DNA of 64,000 nt from Candidatus Poribacteria bacterium (GCA_965214095.1 OZ243938.1:3488001-3552000), one strand, 5' to 3'; positions 48,715 through 62,571 are shown, counted from the first letter of the stretch. Notes: generated by a model not told the origin, from the sequence alone. Numbers and translations are program-made.

Positions 48715-50172
48715 ATGGCAGACCAACCCCATGTCTTACTAATTAGCACAGATCATTGGCCCAACTCACTACTCGGTGTCAATGACCATCCAGACATCCA
48801 AACACCAACACTTGACTCACTTGCACGCGCTGGCACGCGTTTTACCAATGGATACAGCGAATGTCCTGTTTGTGTCCCCGCACGTAAAACTTTGATGACA
48901 GGCACAACGACACGCACACACAAAGACCGAGTCTTCAACGATAAAATGGGAATCAACGGACTTCCCACAATTGCACAAACATTTCGGGATGCAGGCTATC
49001 AAGCGTACGCAGTCGGCAAACTACACGTCTATCCGCAACGCGATCGCATCGGTTTTGACGATGTGATATTGGGTGAGGAGGGTAGATTACAATACGGTGT
49101 GATTGACGATTATGAACTCTTTCTCGGAGATAGAGGGTATGCCGGGCAGCAGTTTGCACACGGTATGTGTAACAACGACTATCTCAACCGTCCTTGGCAT
49201 CTCCCTGAAGATTGTCATGTCACCAACTGGAGCACCCAACAGATGGTGCGTCAGATTAAACGGCGCGACCCAACCCGCCCCGGTTTCTGGTTCCTGTCCT
49301 ATTGCCATCCACATCCACCATTAGCACCGCTACAATGTTATATGGATATGTATCAGAATATTGATATTGAAATGCCATATCACGGAGAATGGTCTAAAGA
49401 TACAGACAAACTTCCATTACCGTTAAAGTCACGTCAAATGCAGGATGCGCGCTACAATGAGAATCTAATCCGTTCTGCACGTCAAGCGTTTTACGCACTC
49501 TGCACACAAATTGACCATCAATTGCGACTTGTCATCGGTACATTGCGCGAAGAAGGTTTGTTGAACAACACCATCATTCTGTTCACCTCCGACCACGGTG
49601 ATATGCTTGGAAACCATCGGATGTGGGCAAAACGGCTCTACTACGAAGATTCCGCTAACGTACCAATGCTTCTTGTCGGTGCTGCAGGCGACGACAGAGT
49701 CGGACACAACAGAGTTGACAACCGACTCGTTGGATGGCAAGATGTTATGCCGACACTCCTCCATCTCGCCGGTGTTGACATTCCTGATACTGTGGATGGT
49801 ATGCCGATGGTAGGTGACAATCAACGTGAATGGTTATACGGCGAAGTCGGTTCTGGTAGTAGTGCCACCCGAATGATTCATGAAGGACGTTACAAACTCA
49901 TCTACTATGCTATGGGTAACTACCGACAACTTTTTGATTTGGAAGAAGATCCGAGAGAATTCAACGATCTGTCAGCATCCCCTGAACATGCTGATATACT
50001 TGACAGATTGACGAATTTATTGATTGGTGAACTTTATGGTGGTGATGAAAAATGGGTACAGGATGGTGTACTTGTTGGGTTGCCTGACAAAGAATATCGT
50101 CCATCTGCGAATCGTAGTTTATCTGGGCAGCGCGGGCTGCATTGGCCGCAGGCTCCGTCTACTGGACGTTGA
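48715..50172 (+). CDS. Sulfatase (formylglycine type)
   Basis: CVPARKTLMTG, GKLH, HPHPP, FTSDHGDMLG. Confidence 0.93.
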   Translation: MADQPHVLLISTDHWPNSLLGVNDHPDIQTPTLDSLARAGTRFTNGYSECPVCVPARKTLMTGTTTRTHKDRVFNDKMGINGLPTIAQTFRDAGYQAYAVGKLHVYPQRDRIGFDDVILGEEGRLQYGVIDDYELFLGDRGYAGQQFAHGMCNNDYLNRPWHLPEDCHVTNWSTQQMVRQIKRRDPTRPGFWFLSYCHPHPPLAPLQCYMDMYQNIDIEMPYHGEWSKDTDKLPLPLKSRQMQDARYNENLIRSARQAFYALCTQIDHQLRLVIGTLREEGLLNNTIILFTSDHGDMLGNHRMWAKRLYYEDSANVPMLLVGAAGDDRVGHNRVDNRLVGWQDVMPTLLHLAGVDIPDTVDGMPMVGDNQREWLYGEVGSGSSATRMIHEGRYKLIYYAMGNYRQLFDLEEDPREFNDLSASPEHADILDRLTNLLIGELYGGDEKWVQDGVLVGLPDKEYRPSANRSLSGQRGLHWPQAPSTGR

Positions 50173-50219
50173 ATGTCTAAACCAAATGTGGTATAATTTT
50201 AATAAGACTTACGCACCTG

Positions 50220-50243
50220 GTAGGCGCGGTTTCTAACCGCGCC
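50220..50243 (+). repeat. REP-like element, family A
   Basis: GTAGGCGCGGTTTCTAACCGCGCC. Confidence 0.7.
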
Positions 50244-50287
50244 GGACATCTTATGAAATTACCGAAATAAGGCTTTCTAAAAGATTT

Positions 50288-51895
50288 ATGGCAAAAAAGA
50301 AATCAAACACAAATAATAACGGTGCAACACTCGGTTTTGAAGCGACTCTATACCAAGCAGCTGATAAACTTCGTAATAACATGGATGCTGCAGAGTACAA
50401 GCACGTGGTGTTGGGATTGATTTTCCTCAAATATATCTCAGATTCTTTTGAGGAAAAATATAACTTTCTACTGGAAGAATATTCTAGTCCTCAGAGTGAA
50501 TTTTTTGTTGCAGAGGAAACCGACCGTTACACGTATGCGGAGGATAGAGACGAGTACTTGGCAGAGAATATTTTCTATGTACCGAAAGAAGCCCGATGGT
50601 CATATTTACAATCAAATGCTAAACAGCCCAATATTGGCACGTTGATTGATAATGCGATGATTGCAATTGAACAGGAAAATCCACGACTCAAAGGTGTGCT
50701 GCCCAAAAACTACGCACGTCCAGGACTTGACAAACAACGACTCGGTGAACTTGTCGATCTCATCGGTACAATCGGTTTAGGGGAAGAAGAGAATCGCTCA
50801 AAGGATATTCTGGGGAGAGTTTATGAATACTTCCTTGCACGGTTTGCCAGTGCCGAAGGCAAAAGAGGTGGCCAGTTCTATACGCCTCGTTGTGTTGTGC
50901 AGCTGCTCGTTGAGATGCTCGCGCCGTATCAAGGAAGGATTTACGACCCGTGCTGCGGCTCAGGTGGCATGTTTGTTCAGAGTGAAGCATTCGTTGAAGC
51001 ACACGGTGGACAGCGGGATGACATCTCTATCTATGGACAGGAGTCCAACCCAACTACGCGGCAATTGGCACTGATGAACCTTTCTATTCGTGGGATTGAA
51101 GCAAATCTCGGACAGGAACACGCCGACAGTTTTCACGACGATCAGCACCCCGACCTGAAAGTCGACTATATCCTCGCTAATCCACCTTTCAACGATAGCG
51201 ACTGGGGTGGTGACCGATTGCGTGAAGATAAACGTTGGAATTACGGCATTCCTCCTACTGGCAACGCTAACTATGCTTGGGTGCAGCACTTTATCTATCA
51301 CCTCGCGCCAAACGGTATCGCTGGATTTGTGTTAGCAAACGGTTCAATGAGTACAAATACCGCAAACGAAGGTGAAATACGCAAAAACATCGTTGAAGCA
51401 GATTTAGTGGATTGCATGGTCGCGTTACCCGGGCAACTCTTCTATTCCACATCTATTCCTGTCTGTCTCTGGTTTATTGCAAGGAATAAAGAAACACACC
51501 GTTTTCGAAAACGTCCAGGGGAGACACTTTTTATAGACGGTCGTAAGTTAGGGAAGATGATTGACCGCGTACACCGTGAGTTAACTAATTCAGAAATGAC
51601 ACGTATTGCTGAAACCTATCACGCATGGCGCGGCGATGAAGGCGCAGATGAATATGCTGATGTGCCAGGCTTTTGTAAAAGCACTACACTTGCTGAGATT
51701 CAGGAGCACAGTAACGTTCTGACTCCCGGCCGGTACGTCGGGGCAGAGATACAGGAAGAGGATGACGAACTGTTTGAGGACGTTATAGTAGATTTGACTG
51801 AGAAATTAACTAAACAGATGGCAGAAGCGAGACGATTAGATGATGCTATTTGTGAGAATTTGCAAATGCTCGGATTTGAAATGAATAAGAGGTAA
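50288..51895 (+). CDS. hsdM: Type I R-M methyltransferase subunit
   Basis: [29 protein letters not shown]. Confidence 0.96.
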
Positions 51896-51900
51896 AGATA

Positions 51901-52149
51901 ATGACAGTAAAAGAATTAATGGAATATCTCCAAAAATATCCAGACGATTTACGAGTTGTTGTTAACGGCTATGAAGATGGCTATGACGACATTGCGTCAG
52001 AACGGATTTTCACGAGAAAAATAAAGTTAGATGCCGGAACTCACGACTGGGAAGGAAAACACGGCGATCCACCCTATGAGACCGAAACAACAACTGATGA
52101 TGCCGAAGTTGTAGATGCTTTGGTTTTTCACCGCGTTCCGTATTATTGA
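51901..52149 (+). CDS. Small acidic hypothetical protein within the R-M operon
   Basis: GAGGT RBS; MTVKELMEYLQKYPDDLRVVVNGYEDG. Confidence 0.7.
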   Translation: MTVKELMEYLQKYPDDLRVVVNGYEDGYDDIASERIFTRKIKLDAGTHDWEGKHGDPPYETETTTDDAEVVDALVFHRVPYY

Positions 52150-52183
52150 AATAGTTTGAGAATATTAACAGTGGTAGATTATA

Positions 52184-53482
52184 ATGTTTGATTTTCCCGA
52201 TAGATGGCGACTTAGGTCTGTGGAGGAAAGCATGGAAGCAATTATTGACTATCGCGGTAAAACACCGCGCAAAACTCCCTCTGGCACTCCACTGATTACA
52301 GCAAAAATTGTAAAAAATGGTCAGATAATGCCTCCTACCGAATTCATTGCTTCCGAAGGTTATGATTCATGGATGAATCGGGGATTGCCAGAGTCCGGTG
52401 ATGTGGTCATGACGACTGAAGCACCCTTAGGGGAGATTGCACAGATTGATAATTGTAAAGTCGCTCTTGGTCAACGACTGATTACTTTGAGAGGCAAGCC
52501 AGATTTATTAAATAATACCTATCTTAAGTTTGCAATGCAGGCATCGTTTGTGCAAAACCAATTGGAGGCAAGATCTACAGGGACAACGGTGATGGGCATT
52601 TCTCAGCGCGAACTTAGAAAGGTTCAAATACCACTTCCATCTCTATCTGAACAACGCTGCATTGCAAACATCCTTGGCACACTTGACGACAAAATTGAAC
52701 TCAACCGCCAGATGAATGAAACACTGGAAGCAACAGCACGTGCAATTTTCAAATCATGGTTCGTGAACTTTGACCCCGTAAAGGCGAAGATGGAAGGACG
52801 CGAACCTGTATGCATTGATGCGGAAACTGCTGACTTATTTTCATCAGTGTTCCAAGATTCTCCGCTGGGAAAGATTCCGATAGGATGGACAGTTAGCACA
52901 ATTGATGATGATTTTTACCTTACAATGGGACAATCACCACCTGGATCCACGTACAACGAAGATGGAGATGGGATGCCATTCTATCAAGGACGAAAGGATT
53001 TCGGTTTTAGGTATCCAACGCGACGCGTTTATTGCACTGCACCAAAACGATTTGCTAAAAAAGGTGATACCTTGGTAAGTGTTCGTGCACCTGTGGGCGA
53101 TATAAATATGGTTGAGGAAAAGTGCAGTATAGGTCGCGGTGTGGCAGCAATAAGACATAAAAGCGGGAGTCGGTCTTATACCTACTACACCATGCAGTCT
53201 TTGCAGGAAATTTTTTCTCGTTACGAAGCGGAAGGAACGGTTTTTGGGGCAATTAATAAAACTGACTTCCAAACACTATCTCAGATTAGACCATCTGATA
53301 AAATTATCAAAGAATTTGAACGTCTCATTCATCCTTTGGATCAATCTATTGAGAATAACGAAAACGAATCCCGCACACTTTCCCAAATCCGAGATACACT
53401 GCTGCCAAGACTATTATCAGGAGAAATTCGCGTTGAGGATGCAGATGAAATGTTAGAGGTAAAAGATGGCAAACAATCCTAA
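52184..53482 (+). CDS. hsdS: Type I R-M specificity subunit
   Basis: Two TRDs; conserved PLPSLSEQ..IA.IL..LDDKIELN, IP.GW, RDTLLPRLLSGEI. Confidence 0.95.
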   Translation: MFDFPDRWRLRSVEESMEAIIDYRGKTPRKTPSGTPLITAKIVKNGQIMPPTEFIASEGYDSWMNRGLPESGDVVMTTEAPLGEIAQIDNCKVALGQRLITLRGKPDLLNNTYLKFAMQASFVQNQLEARSTGTTVMGISQRELRKVQIPLPSLSEQRCIANILGTLDDKIELNRQMNETLEATARAIFKSWFVNFDPVKAKMEGREPVCIDAETADLFSSVFQDSPLGKIPIGWTVSTIDDDFYLTMGQSPPGSTYNEDGDGMPFYQGRKDFGFRYPTRRVYCTAPKRFAKKGDTLVSVRAPVGDINMVEEKCSIGRGVAAIRHKSGSRSYTYYTMQSLQEIFSRYEAEGTVFGAINKTDFQTLSQIRPSDKIIKEFERLIHPLDQSIENNENESRTLSQIRDTLLPRLLSGEIRVEDADEMLEVKDGKQS

Positions 53483-54974
53483 AGTATTTATTTCATATTC
53501 CCATGACTCTCCCGAACATAAGCAGTGGGTGTCCGAACTTGCTGCACGACTGCGTCGCAATGGAATTGATGCAATGCTTGACCAGTGGGACCTTGGACTC
53601 GGAGATGATATAACACGATTCATGGAACGTAGCATTGTAGACGCTGATAGGGTGTTGGTTATATGCACAGACAAGTACGTGAGCAAGGCAAATGCTGCCG
53701 AGGGTGGTGTTGGCTATGAGCGGATGATTGTAAACGCGGAACTTGTTCAGAATTTAGGGACAGACAAATTTATTCCAATCATCCGTCAGGTATCAGGAAA
53801 AGAAAAAACACCCGTATTTTTAGGTACAAGAGTTTATGCTGACTTTAGAAATGACAGTCAATTTGACGCGGAATGTGAAAAATTAATTCGCGAACTTCAC
53901 GAAATGCCAATCATAGAGAAGCCTCCTTTGGGAAAAAACCCGTTCCCTTCTGTTGAATTAGATCCGCAACTGGTTGATATTCCGGAGCATGTTGAATCCG
54001 CATCTGAGGTTTATAAATTAGCTTCTAAACTTGTCCGGACAGGAGATGTGTTTGGATGGCGACAACTCATTAAACGGGTTCGACCAGGCATATTCGAATC
54101 TTTGGTGCAATGGAGGCAAAATGAATTAGATAGACAAAAACCAGAGAGCATAGAACAATTGGTTCAGGTTGTAGATAAGGCAGTTGAGATTATTTCACCC
54201 TTAATGGTTGTAGCGTTAGTAGGAGTTGAATCTGGTAGAGAGGAATTTCGAGATCAGAAGTCCTTACTTGATGACTTGTTAAACATTTCAGGATGGAATT
54301 CTTCCGGTTACACAACATGGGCAAATATTCCTGAAGCACTGGGATATATCTATCACAGTCTACACGGTGGCCTCAGCATGAGCACAAATCAACTGAATCT
54401 CTCCCTTAGCCTAGCACTAGCAAAAGTCCGCAAAACAGGATATAAAAGAGAATGCCTTCATATTTGGCGGGGAAAAAATCTTATAGGATGGATGGACTCA
54501 CTCGGTTCAAATTGTACAGAAGGTTGGAACTATATAACCAAAGCTTATGAAAGATGGGATTGGCTGTCTCTCATGTTTGGGAACGATTCAAAAGAATATC
54601 AGGCTTCATTGGTTGCCTATTACATGGCACTGAACGTCCATGAGTTAGCAGTAATAATCGCATCAGGTCAACAAGAAAAGTTAAGCAAAAGTTACGGCGT
54701 ATCTTACCCATTTGAGTTTGATGTTCCGTTGACTTTTATGACTGAAAACCAAGATGTTTTTCAGCGAGCACAGACTTTTTTACTTCGAAATTCAGAAGCA
54801 TTCACAGAACTATGGACAATATTAAATGTGACACATGAACAAATGCAGAATTCATGGAAAAAGTGGATTTATTTATTTGAAAGTTGGTTAGGGAATGTCT
54901 ATAAAAATACATCGATGTGGGATGTTTATCATTATAACATTGTCCATTATCAAAACTTTTTTCACAACCTATAA
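53466..54974 (+). CDS. TIR/SEFIR-domain protein with an uncharacterised helical C-terminal region
   Basis: KVFISYSHDS..HK.WV..LA..L...G...LDQW, GGVGYE, KFIPIIR; overlaps the end of hsdS. Confidence 0.88.
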   Translation: MANNPKVFISYSHDSPEHKQWVSELAARLRRNGIDAMLDQWDLGLGDDITRFMERSIVDADRVLVICTDKYVSKANAAEGGVGYERMIVNAELVQNLGTDKFIPIIRQVSGKEKTPVFLGTRVYADFRNDSQFDAECEKLIRELHEMPIIEKPPLGKNPFPSVELDPQLVDIPEHVESASEVYKLASKLVRTGDVFGWRQLIKRVRPGIFESLVQWRQNELDRQKPESIEQLVQVVDKAVEIISPLMVVALVGVESGREEFRDQKSLLDDLLNISGWNSSGYTTWANIPEALGYIYHSLHGGLSMSTNQLNLSLSLALAKVRKTGYKRECLHIWRGKNLIGWMDSLGSNCTEGWNYITKAYERWDWLSLMFGNDSKEYQASLVAYYMALNVHELAVIIASGQQEKLSKSYGVSYPFEFDVPLTFMTENQDVFQRAQTFLLRNSEAFTELWTILNVTHEQMQNSWKKWIYLFESWLGNVYKNTSMWDVYHYNIVHYQNFFHNL

Positions 54975-55063
54975 CCTTATTTTTCGTTAGTCATATTTCT
55001 TGAACAATCTAAGAGAGTCTAAACAATCTCTTATACCAAATTAACGGAATTTATCTTTTCCAA

Positions 55064-55089
55064 CGGTAGGTGCGGTTTCCTAACCGCAC
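55064..55089 (+). repeat. REP-like element, family A
   Basis: CGGTAGGTGCGGTTTCCTAACCGCAC. Confidence 0.75.
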
Positions 55090-55162
55090 ACTTAGCAAGA
55101 CGAATCACGTTAATTGGGTGTTATATCTGCTAAGAACATCTGACGAAGTTGTTCAGTTAAAT

Positions 55163-55352
55163 GAGGGGTGTGCATAAATATATTATGTGCCAACATTGGC
55201 AGCGTCTCTCATCAAGTATTTCTTTATATGTAATTGTCCCCTTTGTGGCAGCATAATCTATTGAGACGCTTTGATCTTGTGGACGGCACGCGGAGCGTGC
55301 CTACTACTTTTAAGACCATATTTGAGATTGATTTTCTTTATGCACACTCCTC
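55163..55352. mobile_element. 190-bp MITE with 16-bp TIRs and an 8-bp target-site duplication
   Basis: GAGGGGTGTGCATAAA ... TTTATGCACACTCCTC (15/16), flanked by AGTTAAAT at 55155-55162 and 55353-55360. Confidence 0.85.
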
Positions 55353-55399
55353 AGTTAAATTTGTCTAAGTGGTGCATCTGATATACCAGAGATAAAAAG

Positions 55400-57070
55400 A
55401 TGACTAAAAATCATAAGGTTTTCATTTCATATTCTCACGATTCTCCAGAGCACAAACGGTGGGTATCCGAACTCGCTGCACAACTTCGGCGCAATGGTGT
55501 CAATACAATACTTGACCAGTGGAATCTTGATCTAAAAGATAATGCTACTCAATTCATGGAACAGAGCGTCAGGGGCTCCGATATGGTCTTAGTTGTTTGC
55601 ACGGATAGTTATGTGAGCAAAGCTAATGATGGCGAAAGTGGAGCTGGATACGAGTCTGTGATAGTGTCTGAAAAAATAGTTGCCGAATTCGGAATTAACA
55701 AATTCATTCCCATAATTCGCCAGACAGAATGGGAAGAAGAAACACCAGATTTCTTAAGAGACCGAGTTTCTATAGACTTTACGAATGACGAACTATTTGA
55801 TGCGAAATTTGAGGAGCTGCTGCATGAACGTCTCTTAGTCCCACCCGGACAAAGACCTGATGTCCCACACATTGAGTCATTACGTGTAAAAAACTACCGT
55901 GCACTACGAGATGTAGAATTAAAACAGCTTAAACCGCTAACTGTCTTTTTAGGTGCAAACGGTAGTGGGAAATCAACGTTTTTTGATGTGTTTGCGTTCC
56001 TATCTGAATGTTTCACAGTCGGTTTGCACCACGCTTGGAACAAAAGAGGTGGACTTAAAGAACTGAGGAGTCGTGGTTGTGATGGTCCAATTGAATTTGA
56101 GTTGAAATATCGTGAGAATCCAAAATCACCAATTATGACATACCATCTGTCTATCAATGAAGATGTAGAAGGTCCTTTTGTTGAAACTGAATGGCTGCAA
56201 TGGAGGATTGGTAGAGGTGGAAAACATGTGCGTTTTCTCAATTTTGAGCGTGGAACAGGGAGTGTTATCCCCGGTGAAAAACCGGATAAAACAGGAACTC
56301 CAATTCATGAACAACTTGATGATCCATCTACACTTGCTGTCAACATGTTTGGTCAATCTTCACAACACCCCCGCGTGGGGGCACTCCGCCGTTTTATTAC
56401 AGATTGGCACCTCTCGGACCTTTCAACCGATGCCACACGCCAGACCACTGACGATGGACCGCAAAAGCGGTTGTCCAAAACAGGGGACAATCTGCCCAAT
56501 GTTATCCAATATCTACAGGAAAGATACCCAGAACGTTTGGAGAAAATCATATCGCTACTATCGGATAGAGTACCACGTTTAGAGAGGGTCGACACAGAAT
56601 TAATGATGGATGGAAGACGTTTGCTGAAAATTAAAGATGCTCCTTTTGAACAACCTATCTTGGCAAAGTTCGCCTCCGATGGCACATTGAAGCTGCTATC
56701 TTACCTAATCCTATTTCATGATAGACAACCGCCGCAACTAATCGGTATCGAGGAACCTGAGAATTACTTACATCCGCGTTTACTTATAGGACTGGTAGAC
56801 ACGTGTCGTATAGCATGCATCACGTCTCAACTTATGATTACGACGCATTCACCACGTTTTGTTAACGAACTCTATACCGATGAAGTATGGGTACTCTATC
56901 GGGATGAACAAGGTTTCACAGTGTGTAAACGCGCGTCGGAGATGCAGGGAATAGAGCAGCTTTTGGATGCTGGCGCGAAATTAGGAAAACTCTGGATGGA
57001 AGGTTACTTTGAATTTGGTGATCCGTTGACCAATGCAGGAGGTCCAAAGCGAAATCTGCATGCACATTAA
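55400..57070 (+). CDS. TIR/SEFIR domain fused to an AAA_21-type ABC ATPase
   Basis: N-terminal KVFISYSHD...GAGYE; Walker A GANGSGKST, signature SDGT, Walker B IEEPEN.LHP, H-loop TTHSP. Confidence 0.9.
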   Translation: MTKNHKVFISYSHDSPEHKRWVSELAAQLRRNGVNTILDQWNLDLKDNATQFMEQSVRGSDMVLVVCTDSYVSKANDGESGAGYESVIVSEKIVAEFGINKFIPIIRQTEWEEETPDFLRDRVSIDFTNDELFDAKFEELLHERLLVPPGQRPDVPHIESLRVKNYRALRDVELKQLKPLTVFLGANGSGKSTFFDVFAFLSECFTVGLHHAWNKRGGLKELRSRGCDGPIEFELKYRENPKSPIMTYHLSINEDVEGPFVETEWLQWRIGRGGKHVRFLNFERGTGSVIPGEKPDKTGTPIHEQLDDPSTLAVNMFGQSSQHPRVGALRRFITDWHLSDLSTDATRQTTDDGPQKRLSKTGDNLPNVIQYLQERYPERLEKIISLLSDRVPRLERVDTELMMDGRRLLKIKDAPFEQPILAKFASDGTLKLLSYLILFHDRQPPQLIGIEEPENYLHPRLLIGLVDTCRIACITSQLMITTHSPRFVNELYTDEVWVLYRDEQGFTVCKRASEMQGIEQLLDAGAKLGKLWMEGYFEFGDPLTNAGGPKRNLHAH

Positions 57071-57683
57071 ATTCTTCTTAGAGGAGCCTTCTGCTGAGGT
57101 AGCATTAAAGCACATCTTGCCCAAGATTCTTTCACCAGATGTCATTTGTATCTTCCATGCATTTGAAGGAAAGGATGATATGCTCAAAGAATTGCCAAAG
57201 TTTATGAAAGGACACCAATGGATACCTAACGACTGGCGACTTATCGTGTTACTTGATGAAGACCGAAGAGACTGCCACGAACTCAAGGAATATTTAGAAA
57301 AAGCAGCACACGATGCGGGTTTTGTAACAAAATCCAGTGCTGCTCCAGACGAAGATGTTCAAGTTGTCAATCGACTGGCAGTTGAAGAATTAGAAGCATG
57401 GTTTTTTGGAGATGTTGAAGCTTTACATGCAGCTTATCCCAGAATCTCGAAAAATCTCCAAGCTCAAGCGAAATATCGGGACCCCGATGCAATTGGGGGA
57501 GGCACCTATGAGGCTTTAGAACATCTACTGAAACAAGCGCGCTATTATAAGGGTTATCTACCTAAACGTGAGGTGGCTCAGAATATTGCACAACACATGG
57601 AACCGAGTCGGAACACATCCAAAAGTTTTCAGGTGTTTGTTGAAGGGCTTAAAGCATGCGTCCGAGAGAAATCGTTGGTGTAA
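57060..57683 (+). CDS. DUF4276 family (TOPRIM-like) protein
   Basis: FLEEPS, LLDED..DC, EELEAWFFGD, DPD.I, N.S.SF..F; overlaps the ATPase stop. Confidence 0.82.
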   Translation: MHIKFFLEEPSAEVALKHILPKILSPDVICIFHAFEGKDDMLKELPKFMKGHQWIPNDWRLIVLLDEDRRDCHELKEYLEKAAHDAGFVTKSSAAPDEDVQVVNRLAVEELEAWFFGDVEALHAAYPRISKNLQAQAKYRDPDAIGGGTYEALEHLLKQARYYKGYLPKREVAQNIAQHMEPSRNTSKSFQVFVEGLKACVREKSLV

Positions 57684-57701
57684 CTCGGTTAGGACAATAA
57701 C

Positions 57702-60700
57702 ATGAATCTCAATACAATTTACGAATCTGACATTGAAGAAGCGACACTTGATTGGCTTGCTGACTTGGATTATACTGTTTTACACGGTCCTAACATCGCA
57801 CCAGACGTACCGAATGCTGAACGTTCTACTTACAAAGAAGTCATTTTGACGAACCGCCTACGAGAGGTCATTGCTCGCCTAAATCCAACAATTCCTGTCA
57901 ATGCACAGCAAGAAGCGTTCCGCAAAGTGTTTAATCCAGATTCTCCCGCTTTAGTACAGAACAACCGATCATTTCATCAGATGCTTGTCGGCGGTATAGA
58001 GGTTGAATATCGGACATCAGACGGGACGATACGCGGTGATCGCGTGCGGTTAATTGATTTTGATTCCCCAGAAAACAATGATTGGCTTGCAGTTAACCAG
58101 TTTACAGTAGTAGGAACAAGCAAATGTCGTCCAGACGTTGTGTTATTTATCAATGGCCTTCCATTAGCTGTCATAGAACTCAAAAACCCAACTGATGAAA
58201 AAGCCACTATCTTAACCGCGTATCATCAAATTCAGACTTATAAACAGGAAATATCAGCATTGTTCACTTACAACGAAGCGGTTGTTATCTCTGATGGATT
58301 AGAGGCGCGCATCGGGTCTTTAACAGCTGACATGGAGTGGTTTCTGCCGTGGCGCACAATTAAGGGAGAAGACGAAGCACCATCTACTGAATTAGAGTTA
58401 GAAATATTGATTAAAGGTGTTTTTGAAAAAAGTCGTTTTTTGAGTTATCTTAAGCATTTTATCGTTTTTGAAGAAACAGAGAGCGGAGCAATTGCCAAAA
58501 AGATTGCTGGGTATCACCAATTCCATGCTGTTCAAACAGCAGTAGAAGCAACACTAAAGGCATCAGGTGATGAGGGAGATCAACAGTGCGGTGTCGTTTG
58601 GCATACGCAAGGTTCCGGTAAGAGTTTGACGATGGCTTTTTACGCGGGCAGCATTATTCAACATCCGCAGATGGAAAACCCAACCCTTGTCGTCATCACT
58701 GATACAAACGACTTAGATGATCAACTCTTTGGAACATTTGCACGTTGCCACCAACTGCTGCGACAGACACCAGAACAAGCAGAAAATAGACGACACTTGC
58801 GTGAACTCCTTAAAGTTGCCTCTGGCGGCGTAGTCTTTACGACGGTTCAGAAGTTTTTCCCAGAAGGTGAGGAGACTCGTTTCCCGCAACTGTCTGACCG
58901 ACGAAATATCGTGGTAATTGCAGACGAAGCACACCGTAGCCAGTACGGCTTTATTGATGGGTTTGCCGCTCACATGCGCGATGCACTTCCGAGTGCCTCT
59001 TTTATCGGTTTTACCGGAACACCCATTGAACTCACTGATCGCAATACAGTTGCTGTCTTTGGAGAATACATAAGCACGTATGATATCCAACAAGCAGTTG
59101 ATGATGGAGCAACCGTGCCAATTTACTACGAGAGCCGTCTTGCAAAAATTGAACTTGACGAAGACGAAAAACCGCACATTGATCCCGAATTTGAGGAACT
59201 GACCGAGACAGAAGAGGTAACGGAAAAAGAAAAACTGAAAACTAAATGGGCGCAGCTTGAGGCATTGGTTGGGACAGAAAAACGCTTAAGACTCATCGCA
59301 GATGATATAATTGAACACTTTGGAGAACGGTTAGAAACGATAGATGGTAAAGGTATGATTGTCTGTATGAGTCGTCGTATCTGCGTTGACCTATACAATG
59401 CAATTATTCATCGATGTCCAGAATGGGACAACGATGATGATAAGGATGGCGAGATAAAAGTTGTGATGACAGGATCAGCTTCTGATGACACATCATGGCA
59501 ACCACATATCCGCAATAAAACACGACGAGAGGCATTGGCAACTCGATTTAAAAATCCCAAGGATCCGTTTAAACTTGTCATTGTCCGTGATATGTGGTTG
59601 ACCGGATTTGATGCACCAAGTCTTCACACGATGTATGTAGACAAACCGATGCGTGGACATGGACTGATGCAAGCAATTGCCCGTGTTAATCGTGTGTATG
59701 GTGATAAACCGGGCGGTTTGATAGTAGACTACATCGGTCTTGCTTACCATCTGAAACAAGCTCTAAACAATTACACAAAAAGTGGTGGAAAAGGAAAGGC
59801 TACTCTTGACAAAAATGAGGCAGTTGTGGTTATGATGGAAAAATACGAAATCTGCTGTAATTTGTTTCATGGGTTCGACTGGTCGTTGTGGACTACAGGG
59901 AACGCTGCAGATCAACTAAAATTGTTACCCGCAGCACAAGAACATATCCTGCAACAGAAGAATGGGAAAGAGCGTTTGCTTGAAAATGTGTCAGCACTAA
60001 CCAAGGCATTTGCCCTGGCTGTTCCAGATGAAAAAACAACCGAAATACGGGACGATGTCTCCTTTTTTCAAGCAGTGAGAAAGGTTTTAGCTAAACCATC
60101 AGCTACAGAAGAAGCACAGTGGGATGCCGCCGACCAAGCAATTAAACAGTTGGTTTCCAAAGCTGTTATTCCAGAAGGTGTAGTTGATATTTTCGCCACC
60201 GCTGGACTGGAAAAGCCTGATATCTCCATCCTCTCCGATGAATTCCTTGCAGAAGTGCAAGACCTTCCCCACAAAAACGTGGCAGTTGAACTCTTGGAAA
60301 AACTCCTTAGTGGTGAAATCAAAACGCGTTCACAGAAAAACGTTGTCCAAAGTCGTTCTTTTGCAGAAATGCTGGAACGATCAATCCGTTCCTACCAGAA
60401 CCGAACAGTTGAAGCGGCACAAGTAATTGAAGAACTTATTGAAATCGCAGGAGTGATGCGTCAAGCACAAGACCGAGGCGAGGAATTAGGATTGTCAGAA
60501 GAGGAATTAGCCTTTTATGATGCACTTGAAACTAACGACAGTGCAGTTCAAGTACTCGGTGATGAAAAACTACGTTCCATCGCTATTGAACTTGTAGATA
60601 CCGTTCGGAAAAGTGTGACTATTGACTGGACAATAAAAGAGAGTGTACGAGCAAATATACGTAGGTTGGTGAAGCGGACTCTTCGCAGACACGGTTATCC

Positions 60701-60776
60701 ACCTGATAAACAGGAAAAAGCTGCACAAACTGTTTTGGAACAAGCAGAAGTATTGTGTAAAGACTGGGAGATATAG
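57702..60776 (+). CDS. hsdR: Type I R-M restriction subunit
   Basis: [47 protein letters not shown]. Confidence 0.96.
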
Positions 60777-60855
60777 TAGTTGGAATACGAATTCAATTTG
60801 TTAAATTTGTGTCCGTAAAATCTATCTTTGCACACATTTGTTTGTCAACAGGATG

Positions 60856-60922
60856 AGGCGAGGTTAGGAAACCTCGCCTACCGTTGATAGAAAGTGTAGA
60901 TATAATTCTATGCTTCACCATA
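60856..60922 (-). repeat. Family A REP plus conserved flank (second copy of 46329-46394)
   Basis: 60/66 nt identical to 46329-46394 by manual count. Confidence 0.85.
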
Positions 60923-61134
60923 ATTGGTAAAATTGGTAATTTTTTGATCGGAAAAACCCAGTCACAGACAAGATTCGTGTCCGGAAAAGATTACCAATTT
61001 CCTGAAAGTATCAACTAGAATATGAACAGTTGTGAAAATAACCAAACTGTCACGTAACTAGCATAAGTCGTCATTTTAGTATTATTTTCTATTGATTGAT
61101 AAACAACACTGCAACACCTTCCGTGGAGATAAAC

Positions 61135-62412
61135 ATGAATTTCAGTGATGAAGAAATTAAACGCCAAATGCGTTTAGGTGAAGACAGCCACTGGGAATTC
61201 AAGGAAATTGTGTTTTCTGAAAACAAACCCAAGAGTCCCGGCCGTGCCGATCTTGCAGACGAACTCGCTGCATTTGCAAATGCAGATGGTGGTGTAGTTC
61301 TATGTGGTGTGACCGATAATGGTGATGTTCAAGGCATGTCCCGCGAACAGATGGACAGATTGGAGATGCTCCTAGTTGAGATTTGCACTGATACTATTAA
61401 ACCCTCAATTCGTCCTACTATATTCCGAAAAGAAATTGAAGAAGGCAAACCTTTCCTCCTCATAGAAGTACCACAGGGATTTGCATTACACAATAGTCCG
61501 GGTGGCAGCTTTCACCGAGTTGGTAGTTCAAAACGCAAAATGACAACCGATGAACAATTGCGGCTTGCTCAACTGTGTTCTCAGGCACGTTTCGTCTGGT
61601 TCGACAAGCAACCCGTACCAGGAACAGGTTTCGGTTCATTGGATGAATCACTGTGGAAACCATTGCTCAGTGCCGAAGGTGCTACCGATCCTGAATTAGC
61701 ATTGGAGAAAATGGGGCTCCTTACGCACGATGAAAATGGCGTATTACGTGCAACCGTTTCAGGTGTATTATTGTGTACCCTTTCACCAGAAGAATGGTTA
61801 CCCAATGCCTATATTACTGCAACTTGTTATAGGGGAGAAGACCGTGCTTCTGGACAAATTGATAGCCAAACTATTACGGGACCACTTAACAAACAAATTG
61901 GTGAAGCAGTTGCCTTTGTAGTCCGTAACATGCGCGTCGGAGCATATAAGAATCCTGCCCGAACCGACCTGCCTCAATATAGCGAAAAAGCACTCTTTGA
62001 AGCAATTGTCAACGCCGTTGTACATAGAGACTACGCAATACATGGCAGCAAAATTCGGATTTCAATGTTTGCAGACCGTATCGAAATAAATTCACCTGGA
62101 GGGTTACCTAACAATCTAACGATTAATAGTATGGAAGTCCGACAATCAACTCGCAACGAAGCTCTTACTTCAATACTCGGAAGAATGCCCGTTGCGAAGA
62201 TACATGGTTCAGGTGACCGACAATTCTTCATGGAAAGACGTGGAGAGGGCGTACCAATTATTATACGAGATACGGAAGAGTTATGTGGTAAACAGCCAAA
62301 GTATAAACTCATTGATAATTCAGAACTTGTTCTTACAATTCCAGCAGCCAAGACAGATTCCTCACCCGCAGCCCGTTCATTTCCTTCCAGGGGAGGATTT
62401 ACACCTTACTGA
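61135..62412 (+). CDS. Schlafen/AlbA_2 domain + HATPase_c_4-like protein, probably C-terminally truncated
   Basis: GEDSHWEFK, AAFANADGG.V..GV.D, EAIVNAVVHRDY, I.SPG.LP, RN, ERRGEG; GGAG RBS. Confidence 0.82.
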   Translation: MNFSDEEIKRQMRLGEDSHWEFKEIVFSENKPKSPGRADLADELAAFANADGGVVLCGVTDNGDVQGMSREQMDRLEMLLVEICTDTIKPSIRPTIFRKEIEEGKPFLLIEVPQGFALHNSPGGSFHRVGSSKRKMTTDEQLRLAQLCSQARFVWFDKQPVPGTGFGSLDESLWKPLLSAEGATDPELALEKMGLLTHDENGVLRATVSGVLLCTLSPEEWLPNAYITATCYRGEDRASGQIDSQTITGPLNKQIGEAVAFVVRNMRVGAYKNPARTDLPQYSEKALFEAIVNAVVHRDYAIHGSKIRISMFADRIEINSPGGLPNNLTINSMEVRQSTRNEALTSILGRMPVAKIHGSGDRQFFMERRGEGVPIIIRDTEELCGKQPKYKLIDNSELVLTIPAAKTDSSPAARSFPSRGGFTPY

Positions 62413-62571
62413 TGCTAACGGAATCGAATTAATAGTACGTATTATTGCTATTGTCGGTAATTCGGCATTATTGGAATATTGTCCTGATACAAATGAGCGC
62501 AGCGATTGACTTAAATCACCTTGTTGACATTAATTTGATATATACATTTTGAAACATGAATTCATTCATCC

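Follow-up and report, generated by a model that had tools for sequence, protein, structure and literature searches.

HEC-01 is a common candidate defence system composed of an ATP-binding cassette (ABC) ATPase and a TOPRIM protein, whose trigger and mechanism are unsettled. It first came to light as a cassette lying inside DNA-modification systems; Payne et al. (10.1101/2024.01.29.577857) saw no defence with it, and a cold-seep preprint reports that one HEC-01 protects against at least one phage. The bSEFIR system consists of a single gene, in which a D40A mutant loses defence (Millman et al., 10.1101/2022.05.11.491447), and depletes nicotinamide adenine dinucleotide (NAD+) (Osterman et al., 10.1101/2024.02.11.579819). 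MAD3 and MAD4 of the MADS system form a 2:2 ATPase-DNase complex that cleaves DNA, and are required inside a methylation-based system (PMC13662399). DUF4276, the nuclease family relevant here, is a TOPRIM domain, and PrrC is almost exclusively embedded in type I restriction-modification (R-M) operons. Here we describe a variant of HEC-01 whose ATPase, HEC-01A, carries an N-terminal SEFIR domain, found in 64,000 nucleotides of a Candidatus Poribacteria genome (GCA_965214095.1 OZ243938.1:3488001-3552000), the whole of which is called the window.

The SEFIR-HEC-01A fusion is, on the comparative evidence below, a real and selected variant in a sponge-symbiont lineage, and it persists without the surrounding R-M system. 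The new element is the SEFIR fused to HEC-01A; all of the parts were already known. In the window, the cassette consists of three open reading frames (ORFs) on the + strand between hsdS and hsdR, the first overlapping hsdS by 17 nt and the last ending 19 nt before the start of hsdR, so that the ORF coordinates agree with a preliminary description of three co-oriented, overlapping genes inside a type I R-M operon. The fusion gene (55400-57070) and the HEC-01B gene (57033-57683) overlap as annotated; the true HEC-01B start is probably the ATG at 57060, because an unfused paralog begins at that Met. The features are as follows (aa, amino acids).

53466..54974, + strand: SEFIR-A, 502 aa, with an N-terminal prokaryotic SEFIR (aa 1 to ~150); PADLOC bSEFIR
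55400..55834, + strand: fused SEFIR domain, aa 1-145 of the 556-aa protein
55862..57070, + strand: HEC-01A ABC ATPase domain, aa 155-556 of the fusion protein; PADLOC
57033..57683, + strand: HEC-01B, DUF4276 TOPRIM nuclease, 216 aa; Pfam DUF4276, PADLOC HEC-01B
50288..51895, + strand: hsdM, type I methyltransferase; Pfam N6_Mtase/HsdM_N, PADLOC MTase_I
52184..53482, + strand: hsdS, specificity subunit; Pfam and PADLOC
57702..60776, + strand: hsdR, type I restriction subunit; Pfam and PADLOC
~55060..55094 (approximate), no strand: palindromic genome-wide repeat, ~290 copies
55157..55358, no strand: insertion resembling a miniature inverted-repeat transposable element (MITE), with 22-nt inverted ends, ~15 copies
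55285-55311, + strand: terminator-like hairpin inside the MITE-like insertion

The identity of the parts, a HEC-01 ATPase/TOPRIM pair with SEFIR proteins, can be stated with high confidence. The fusion ATPase matches PADLOC HEC-01A (PDLC04182, E 7.6e-154 over aa 156-541) and the DUF4276 protein HEC-01B (PDLC04202, E 1.5e-83), while bSEFIR matches SEFIR-A at E 1e-79 and the fused N-terminal domain at 2e-60. Models for AriA, AbiLi and mad3 score far below HEC-01A on the same ATPase; PARIS, MADS, AbiL, Septu and retron identities were rejected on matches much weaker than those to HEC-01. Pfam places TIR_2 and SEFIR at residues 5-141 of both SEFIR-A and the fusion protein, AAA_21/AAA_15 on the remainder of the latter, and DUF4276 on the third gene. 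The residues that had been singled out beforehand as intact are all present: Walker A G185/K191, S426-D-G-T, Walker B E451 and the H-loop H483 (kept in 119-120 of 120 homologs), the conserved TOPRIM acidic motifs E17/E18 and D75-x-D77 of HEC-01B, and the GYE motif with Glu85 in both SEFIR domains, where position and invariance suggest a catalytic role. A defence-type module of ABC ATPase, TOPRIM and SEFIR/TIR domains is thereby borne out. The ATPase fold resembles PtuA/OLD/Rad50, in a structure model of the fusion protein that is mediocre in this part (predicted local distance difference test score 68).

Both SEFIRs are closest in sequence and fold to the prokaryotic SEFIR of B. cereus (5Y8E/5Y8F); that of SEFIR-A is ~40% identical to 5Y8E, and its model aligns to 5Y8F with a Z score of 17.9 (next fold 12.6). 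Millman's rule for bSEFIR is a SEFIR match stronger than the TIR match, by HHsearch; here SEFIR is ahead against the PDB, and TIR_2 ranks above SEFIR with hmmscan against Pfam. By analogy with bSEFIR, SEFIR-A is likely an NADase effector, in which D39, G46 and E85 are invariant and the C-terminal domain is variable and all-helical. The whole-protein bSEFIR match extends to aa 301; the C-terminal domain alone matches no PADLOC model at 1e-5. Large unnamed ESM Atlas clusters of ~270-290 aa resemble it at 0.90-0.91, as a lead only, and whole-model fold searches of SEFIR-A are dominated by the SEFIR domain. The same helical domain also stands alone as a SEFIR-less ORF of ~340-350 aa (loci L039, L050, L096 and L105; proteins P0403 and P0406), 17/120 aligned SEFIR-A homologs have no full SEFIR, and the domain may have its own function. 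A closely related SEFIR (60%) lies inside a TPR-SEFIR-pentapeptide protein (P0260), and has therefore been shuffled into other architectures.

The fusion is full-length in 120/120 best protein homologs, which are 73-89% identical, and was found in 29/151 genomes in a first search of the phylum and in 31/176 in the full search, one copy being broken. It is restricted to two families, and the named homologs are Candidatus Poribacteria. Over 50000-55186 and 55324-60883 the window is identical to contigs from two samples, which break only inside the MITE-like insertion (the assembly may itself derive from one or other of these samples). These contigs, the full-length homologs and the recurrence across the phylum rule out an assembly chimera, which the preliminary description had considered. 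The SEFIR-ATPase junction is also spanned by relatives' contigs from a single study's two metatranscriptome libraries, which is no proof of transcription, and a promoter scan was at chance level (21 vs 23.5). Outside Poribacteria, no SEFIR fusion or SEFIR gene was seen at the 27 nearest HEC-01 loci, drawn from the best 80 of 347 and many with short flanks, and no SEFIR-HEC-01A fusion among the best 150 representatives of 50% clusters, a clustering in which an unfused representative can mask a fusion; a distinct TIR fusion (P0226) was the only one of its kind.

Sixty-two loci were mapped (29 fused, 33 unfused), picked from top matches, two of them because of a nearby SEFIR gene. In the family of the window, the cassette sits at a hotspot flanked by a sulfatase and a STAS gene. 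A SEFIR-A-family gene lies directly upstream of 28/29 fusions, with its SEFIR domain in 25, and a TOPRIM gene lies beside 28/29, including L051, where it is a broken piece. SEFIR-A occurs in 57/151 genomes; it can be present where HEC-01 is missing, and HEC-01 where SEFIR-A is missing.

Fused and upstream SEFIRs share 58% of their residues over 153 aa (DNA identity 69%) and separate on one branch of a quick, midpoint-rooted tree (Shimodaira-Hasegawa-like approximate likelihood ratio 98), and the fusion junction is the same in 29/29 fused loci. Because of this single-branch split and common junction, the fused domain is read as an old paralog of the SEFIR-A domain, derived from one old duplication. 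A recent duplication is ruled out by the DNA identity and this split, and routine gene conversion between the two by the lack of any general sign of it from the locus' own upstream copy at 17/18 loci, L043 being a possible exception. On a quick ATPase tree, from which L086 was left out, five gains or losses of the fusion are needed, four of them forced, so the phylogeny indicates repeated SEFIR loss or allele exchange among the ATPases.

Selection on the two copies was compared in 18 genomes of one family by the ratio of nonsynonymous to synonymous substitution (dN/dS, NG86; pairs not independent). It is 0.19 (0.13-0.26) for the fused SEFIR and 0.06 (0.04-0.09) for the upstream SEFIR, against 0.12 for the ATPase, 0.15 for the TOPRIM and 0.22 for the SEFIR-A C-terminus; by this estimate, the fused SEFIR is under purifying selection but less constrained than the upstream copy. 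The BB-loop residue G46, which a hidden Markov model (HMM) alignment places on the BB-loop Gly of bacterial TIRs, is present in 103/103 upstream SEFIRs and 26/120 fused ones (Lys in the window), and 15 fixed residues are specific to the fused copy, mostly at 128-145. In the TIR protein AbTir, G174A leaves no or very low NADase activity and the BB loop builds the active interface.

Because the BB-loop Gly46 is mostly lost though E85 is kept, the fused SEFIR may serve for docking or regulation and not as another NADase, which makes the NADase output first ascribed to it doubtful and leaves SEFIR-A as the better candidate; the more specific proposal, that it offers a surface on which SEFIR-A assembly is seeded or held in check, is put forward tentatively as the likeliest of the readings considered. 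Several observations weigh against it. E85 is found in 119/120 fused SEFIRs, as expected of an active enzyme, and Asp or Asn, which can hold a glycine-like backbone geometry, accounts for 77/94 of the replacements of G46. G46 was mapped by HMM alignment to BtTir and TcpB, not by AbTir coordinates. SEFIR-A does not depend on the presumed partner, since it occurs without the fusion at 29 further loci, and at L039, L041 and L050 the upstream gene has the C-terminal domain only, while L055 has no upstream SEFIR-A-family gene. In the window genome, the MITE with its terminator-like hairpin lies between SEFIR-A and the fusion gene, in a gap of 425 nt that holds the ~200-nt element and the palindromic repeat, and the adjacency of the two genes may be linkage inherited from the duplication. 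An unfused ATPase comes immediately after SEFIR-A at two loci, L065 and L093, and at both the SEFIR-A gene is interrupted by stops or frameshifts; this would fit a fused domain that caps SEFIR-A, in two cases only.

Could the fused SEFIR instead be an active, retuned NADase, switched on by ATPase dimerisation or oligomerisation and giving HEC-01 a second, NAD+-directed output independent of SEFIR-A? The retention of E85, the 34 positions conserved in both copies and the purifying selection would suit such an enzyme, as would the persistence of fusions at 4/29 loci where the upstream SEFIR domain has been lost and an independent, unrelated TIR-HEC-01A fusion in Magnetococcus (P0226). However, the BB loop that AbTir needs intact is highly variable here (42-47), D39, presumably equivalent to bSEFIR D40, is kept in 100/120 against 103/103 upstream copies, and the Magnetococcus fusion has no second example in its 120 best matches, so that we consider this somewhat unlikely. 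It is also conceivable that two independent systems, one bSEFIR-like and one HEC-01, share a hotspot, with the fused SEFIR a tolerated passenger kept only for N-terminal folding stability. The HEC-01A N-terminus has also gained HsdS, a receiver domain and a TIR, unfused alleles occupy the same slot, nested among fused ones, and the constraint is three times weaker than on the upstream SEFIR. Those other fusions are seen only once or twice each, though, whereas the fused SEFIR has been kept across two families at synonymous divergence near 1, with the dN/dS given above, E85 at 99% and new fixed residues, and the passenger explanation seems improbable to us.

The preliminary description had proposed a guard like PrrC or PARIS, which would sense inhibition of the surrounding type I R-M system and fire both a nuclease and an NADase. 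The cassette does occupy the PrrC-like slot at the 17/29 fused loci where R-M is intact, unfused HEC-01A often abuts the hsdS stop, an hsdS-like neighbour stands at 5/27 non-Poribacteria loci, and 24/29 of the fusion-less SEFIR-A loci adjoin type I, III or IIG R-M genes (families named from one representative each); HsdS-ATPase read-through fusions and the requirement for MAD3-MAD4 within a methylation-based system point the same way. Against this, hsdM/S/R are absent at 7/29 fused loci and broken at 4 more (one locus reaches a contig end), and the R-M-less loci are spread over several branches of the ATPase tree, representing several events rather than seven given their kinship. In the 7 genomes, which are 90-99% complete, no cognate hsdM above 44% identity to that of the window was found. 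If losing the R-M partner set off the guard, such loci would not be expected to persist. No type I R-M lies within ~9 kb of the second HEC-01 of the window genome, and genes embedded in type I R-M operons are frequent, unrelated systems among them (Payne et al., 10.1101/2024.01.29.577857). On these comparisons the cassette is probably not a dedicated guard of the surrounding R-M, the guard explanation as a whole is very improbable, and a defence role independent of R-M is rather likely. Direct, PARIS-like sensing of an anti-restriction protein, without contact with the R-M system, is possible by analogy.

The docking proposal can be placed in a scheme in which an anti-phage cassette of composite make-up occupies a defence hotspot of Poribacteria, usually also holding a type I R-M operon that the cassette would not need. 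A tandem duplication of the SEFIR-A gene, followed by an in-frame deletion joining the SEFIR of the second copy to HEC-01A, would have occurred once, before the two families split, and recombination would since have spread or removed the fused domain. HEC-01A and HEC-01B may form an ATPase-TOPRIM nuclease complex, as MAD3-MAD4 do, and SEFIR-A may deplete NAD+ on infection, as bSEFIR does. With its conserved core and changed BB loop, the fused SEFIR might dock to and seed or cap SEFIR-A assemblies, through which the state of the ATPase could tune NAD+ depletion. The full circuit, in which the HEC-01 ATPase senses infection and, via the fused SEFIR, nucleates or caps a SEFIR-A NADase filament, so that one ATPase controls both the TOPRIM nuclease and NAD+ depletion, is an unlikely proposition as it stands; plant sensor/executor TIR pairs are an analogue of it.

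To a family of common occurrence, this analysis adds that the cassette is independent of R-M and how the fused SEFIR has diverged, and bacterial SEFIR activation is poorly described in the literature consulted. The fusion records the merging of two separate defence systems by duplication and divergence at a hotspot, and dozens of alleles, fused or unfused, with or without R-M and with or without the upstream SEFIR, lend themselves to direct comparison. Should the ATPase be coupled to NAD+ depletion through the fused domain, NAD+ would be an easy read-out of HEC-01 activators, and the paired-SEFIR circuit, if true, would provide a trigger assay for the HEC-01 family. The reach is limited, as all of the parts are known and the one phylum in which the fusion was found is uncultured.

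Other features of these loci were also recorded. Tandem SEFIR-A copies occur at L057, L063 and L095. A GHKL/histidine-kinase-like gene (~720 aa) and a receiver-domain gene follow SEFIR-A in the same R-M slot at L062, L063, L090, L101, L105, L107 and L109, and at L062:9663-11333 the receiver domain is fused to HEC-01A. In-frame HsdS-HEC-01A fusions (L066:9321-11882 and protein P0146) may be simple read-through mutations, since in unfused alleles the ATPase ATG comes right after the hsdS stop. The window genome carries a second, unfused HEC-01 pair at another conserved site (L031:9077-10905; G000 C1 ~2817076-2818900; 71%/66% identical) and a distant third ATPase (28%; L032:18661-19935) near another type I R-M cluster. 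Between hsdM and hsdS, an 82-aa ORF (51901-52149) has no Pfam, PADLOC or NCBIfam match; many relatives keep one there (55-82%), and other alleles hold a 137-aa NTase_sub_bind gene at its position, sometimes before a longer (~550 aa) HsdS. After hsdR, a gene with SLFN_AlbA_2 and HATPase_c_4 (61096-62485) is truncated by a frameshift and an internal deletion that removes aa ~413-538 of the 584-aa form; the full-length gene accompanies the hotspot in many relatives, at varying positions.

Compared with known systems, the cassette shares with PrrC its position between hsdS and hsdR, but no HEPN domain was found in it and it is not confined to R-M operons (7/29 without). With PARIS it shares an ABC ATPase with a nuclease output; however, the AriB TOPRIM is DUF4435 (PMC11464382) while that of the window is DUF4276, with no AriB match, and AriA matches at 3e-25 against 8e-154 for HEC-01A. 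SEFIR-A resembles bSEFIR in having an N-terminal prokaryotic SEFIR on a single-gene effector, and differs in that its C-terminal domain taken alone has no PADLOC match at 1e-5 and in the second SEFIR copy fused to an ATPase. MADS, with its AAA_21 ATPase and DUF4276-type TOPRIM amid methyltransferase and specificity genes, is the best mechanistic model, but the window ATPase scores 113 bits against a MAD3 equivalog cut-off of 420, the mandatory mad6-8 had no match among the 8 window proteins scanned, and SEFIR domains have been added. No published account of the fusion was found in the literature searched, which did not cover Krishnan et al. 2020 (ABC ATPase classification) or the Payne tables, either of which may bear on this; the earlier suggestion of an undescribed system thus stands for the fusion and falls for its parts, catalogued in PADLOC as HEC-01 and bSEFIR. 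HEC-01 itself is the closest relative, its ABC ATPase and DUF4276 TOPRIM giving the best HMM matches for both genes. Plain HEC-01 consists of two genes with an ATPase of ~400 aa, whereas here the ATPase bears an extra 150-aa N-terminal SEFIR and, in the window, a paralogous SEFIR gene lies upstream; as this departs from the plain two-gene architecture, the cassette is a variant of HEC-01.

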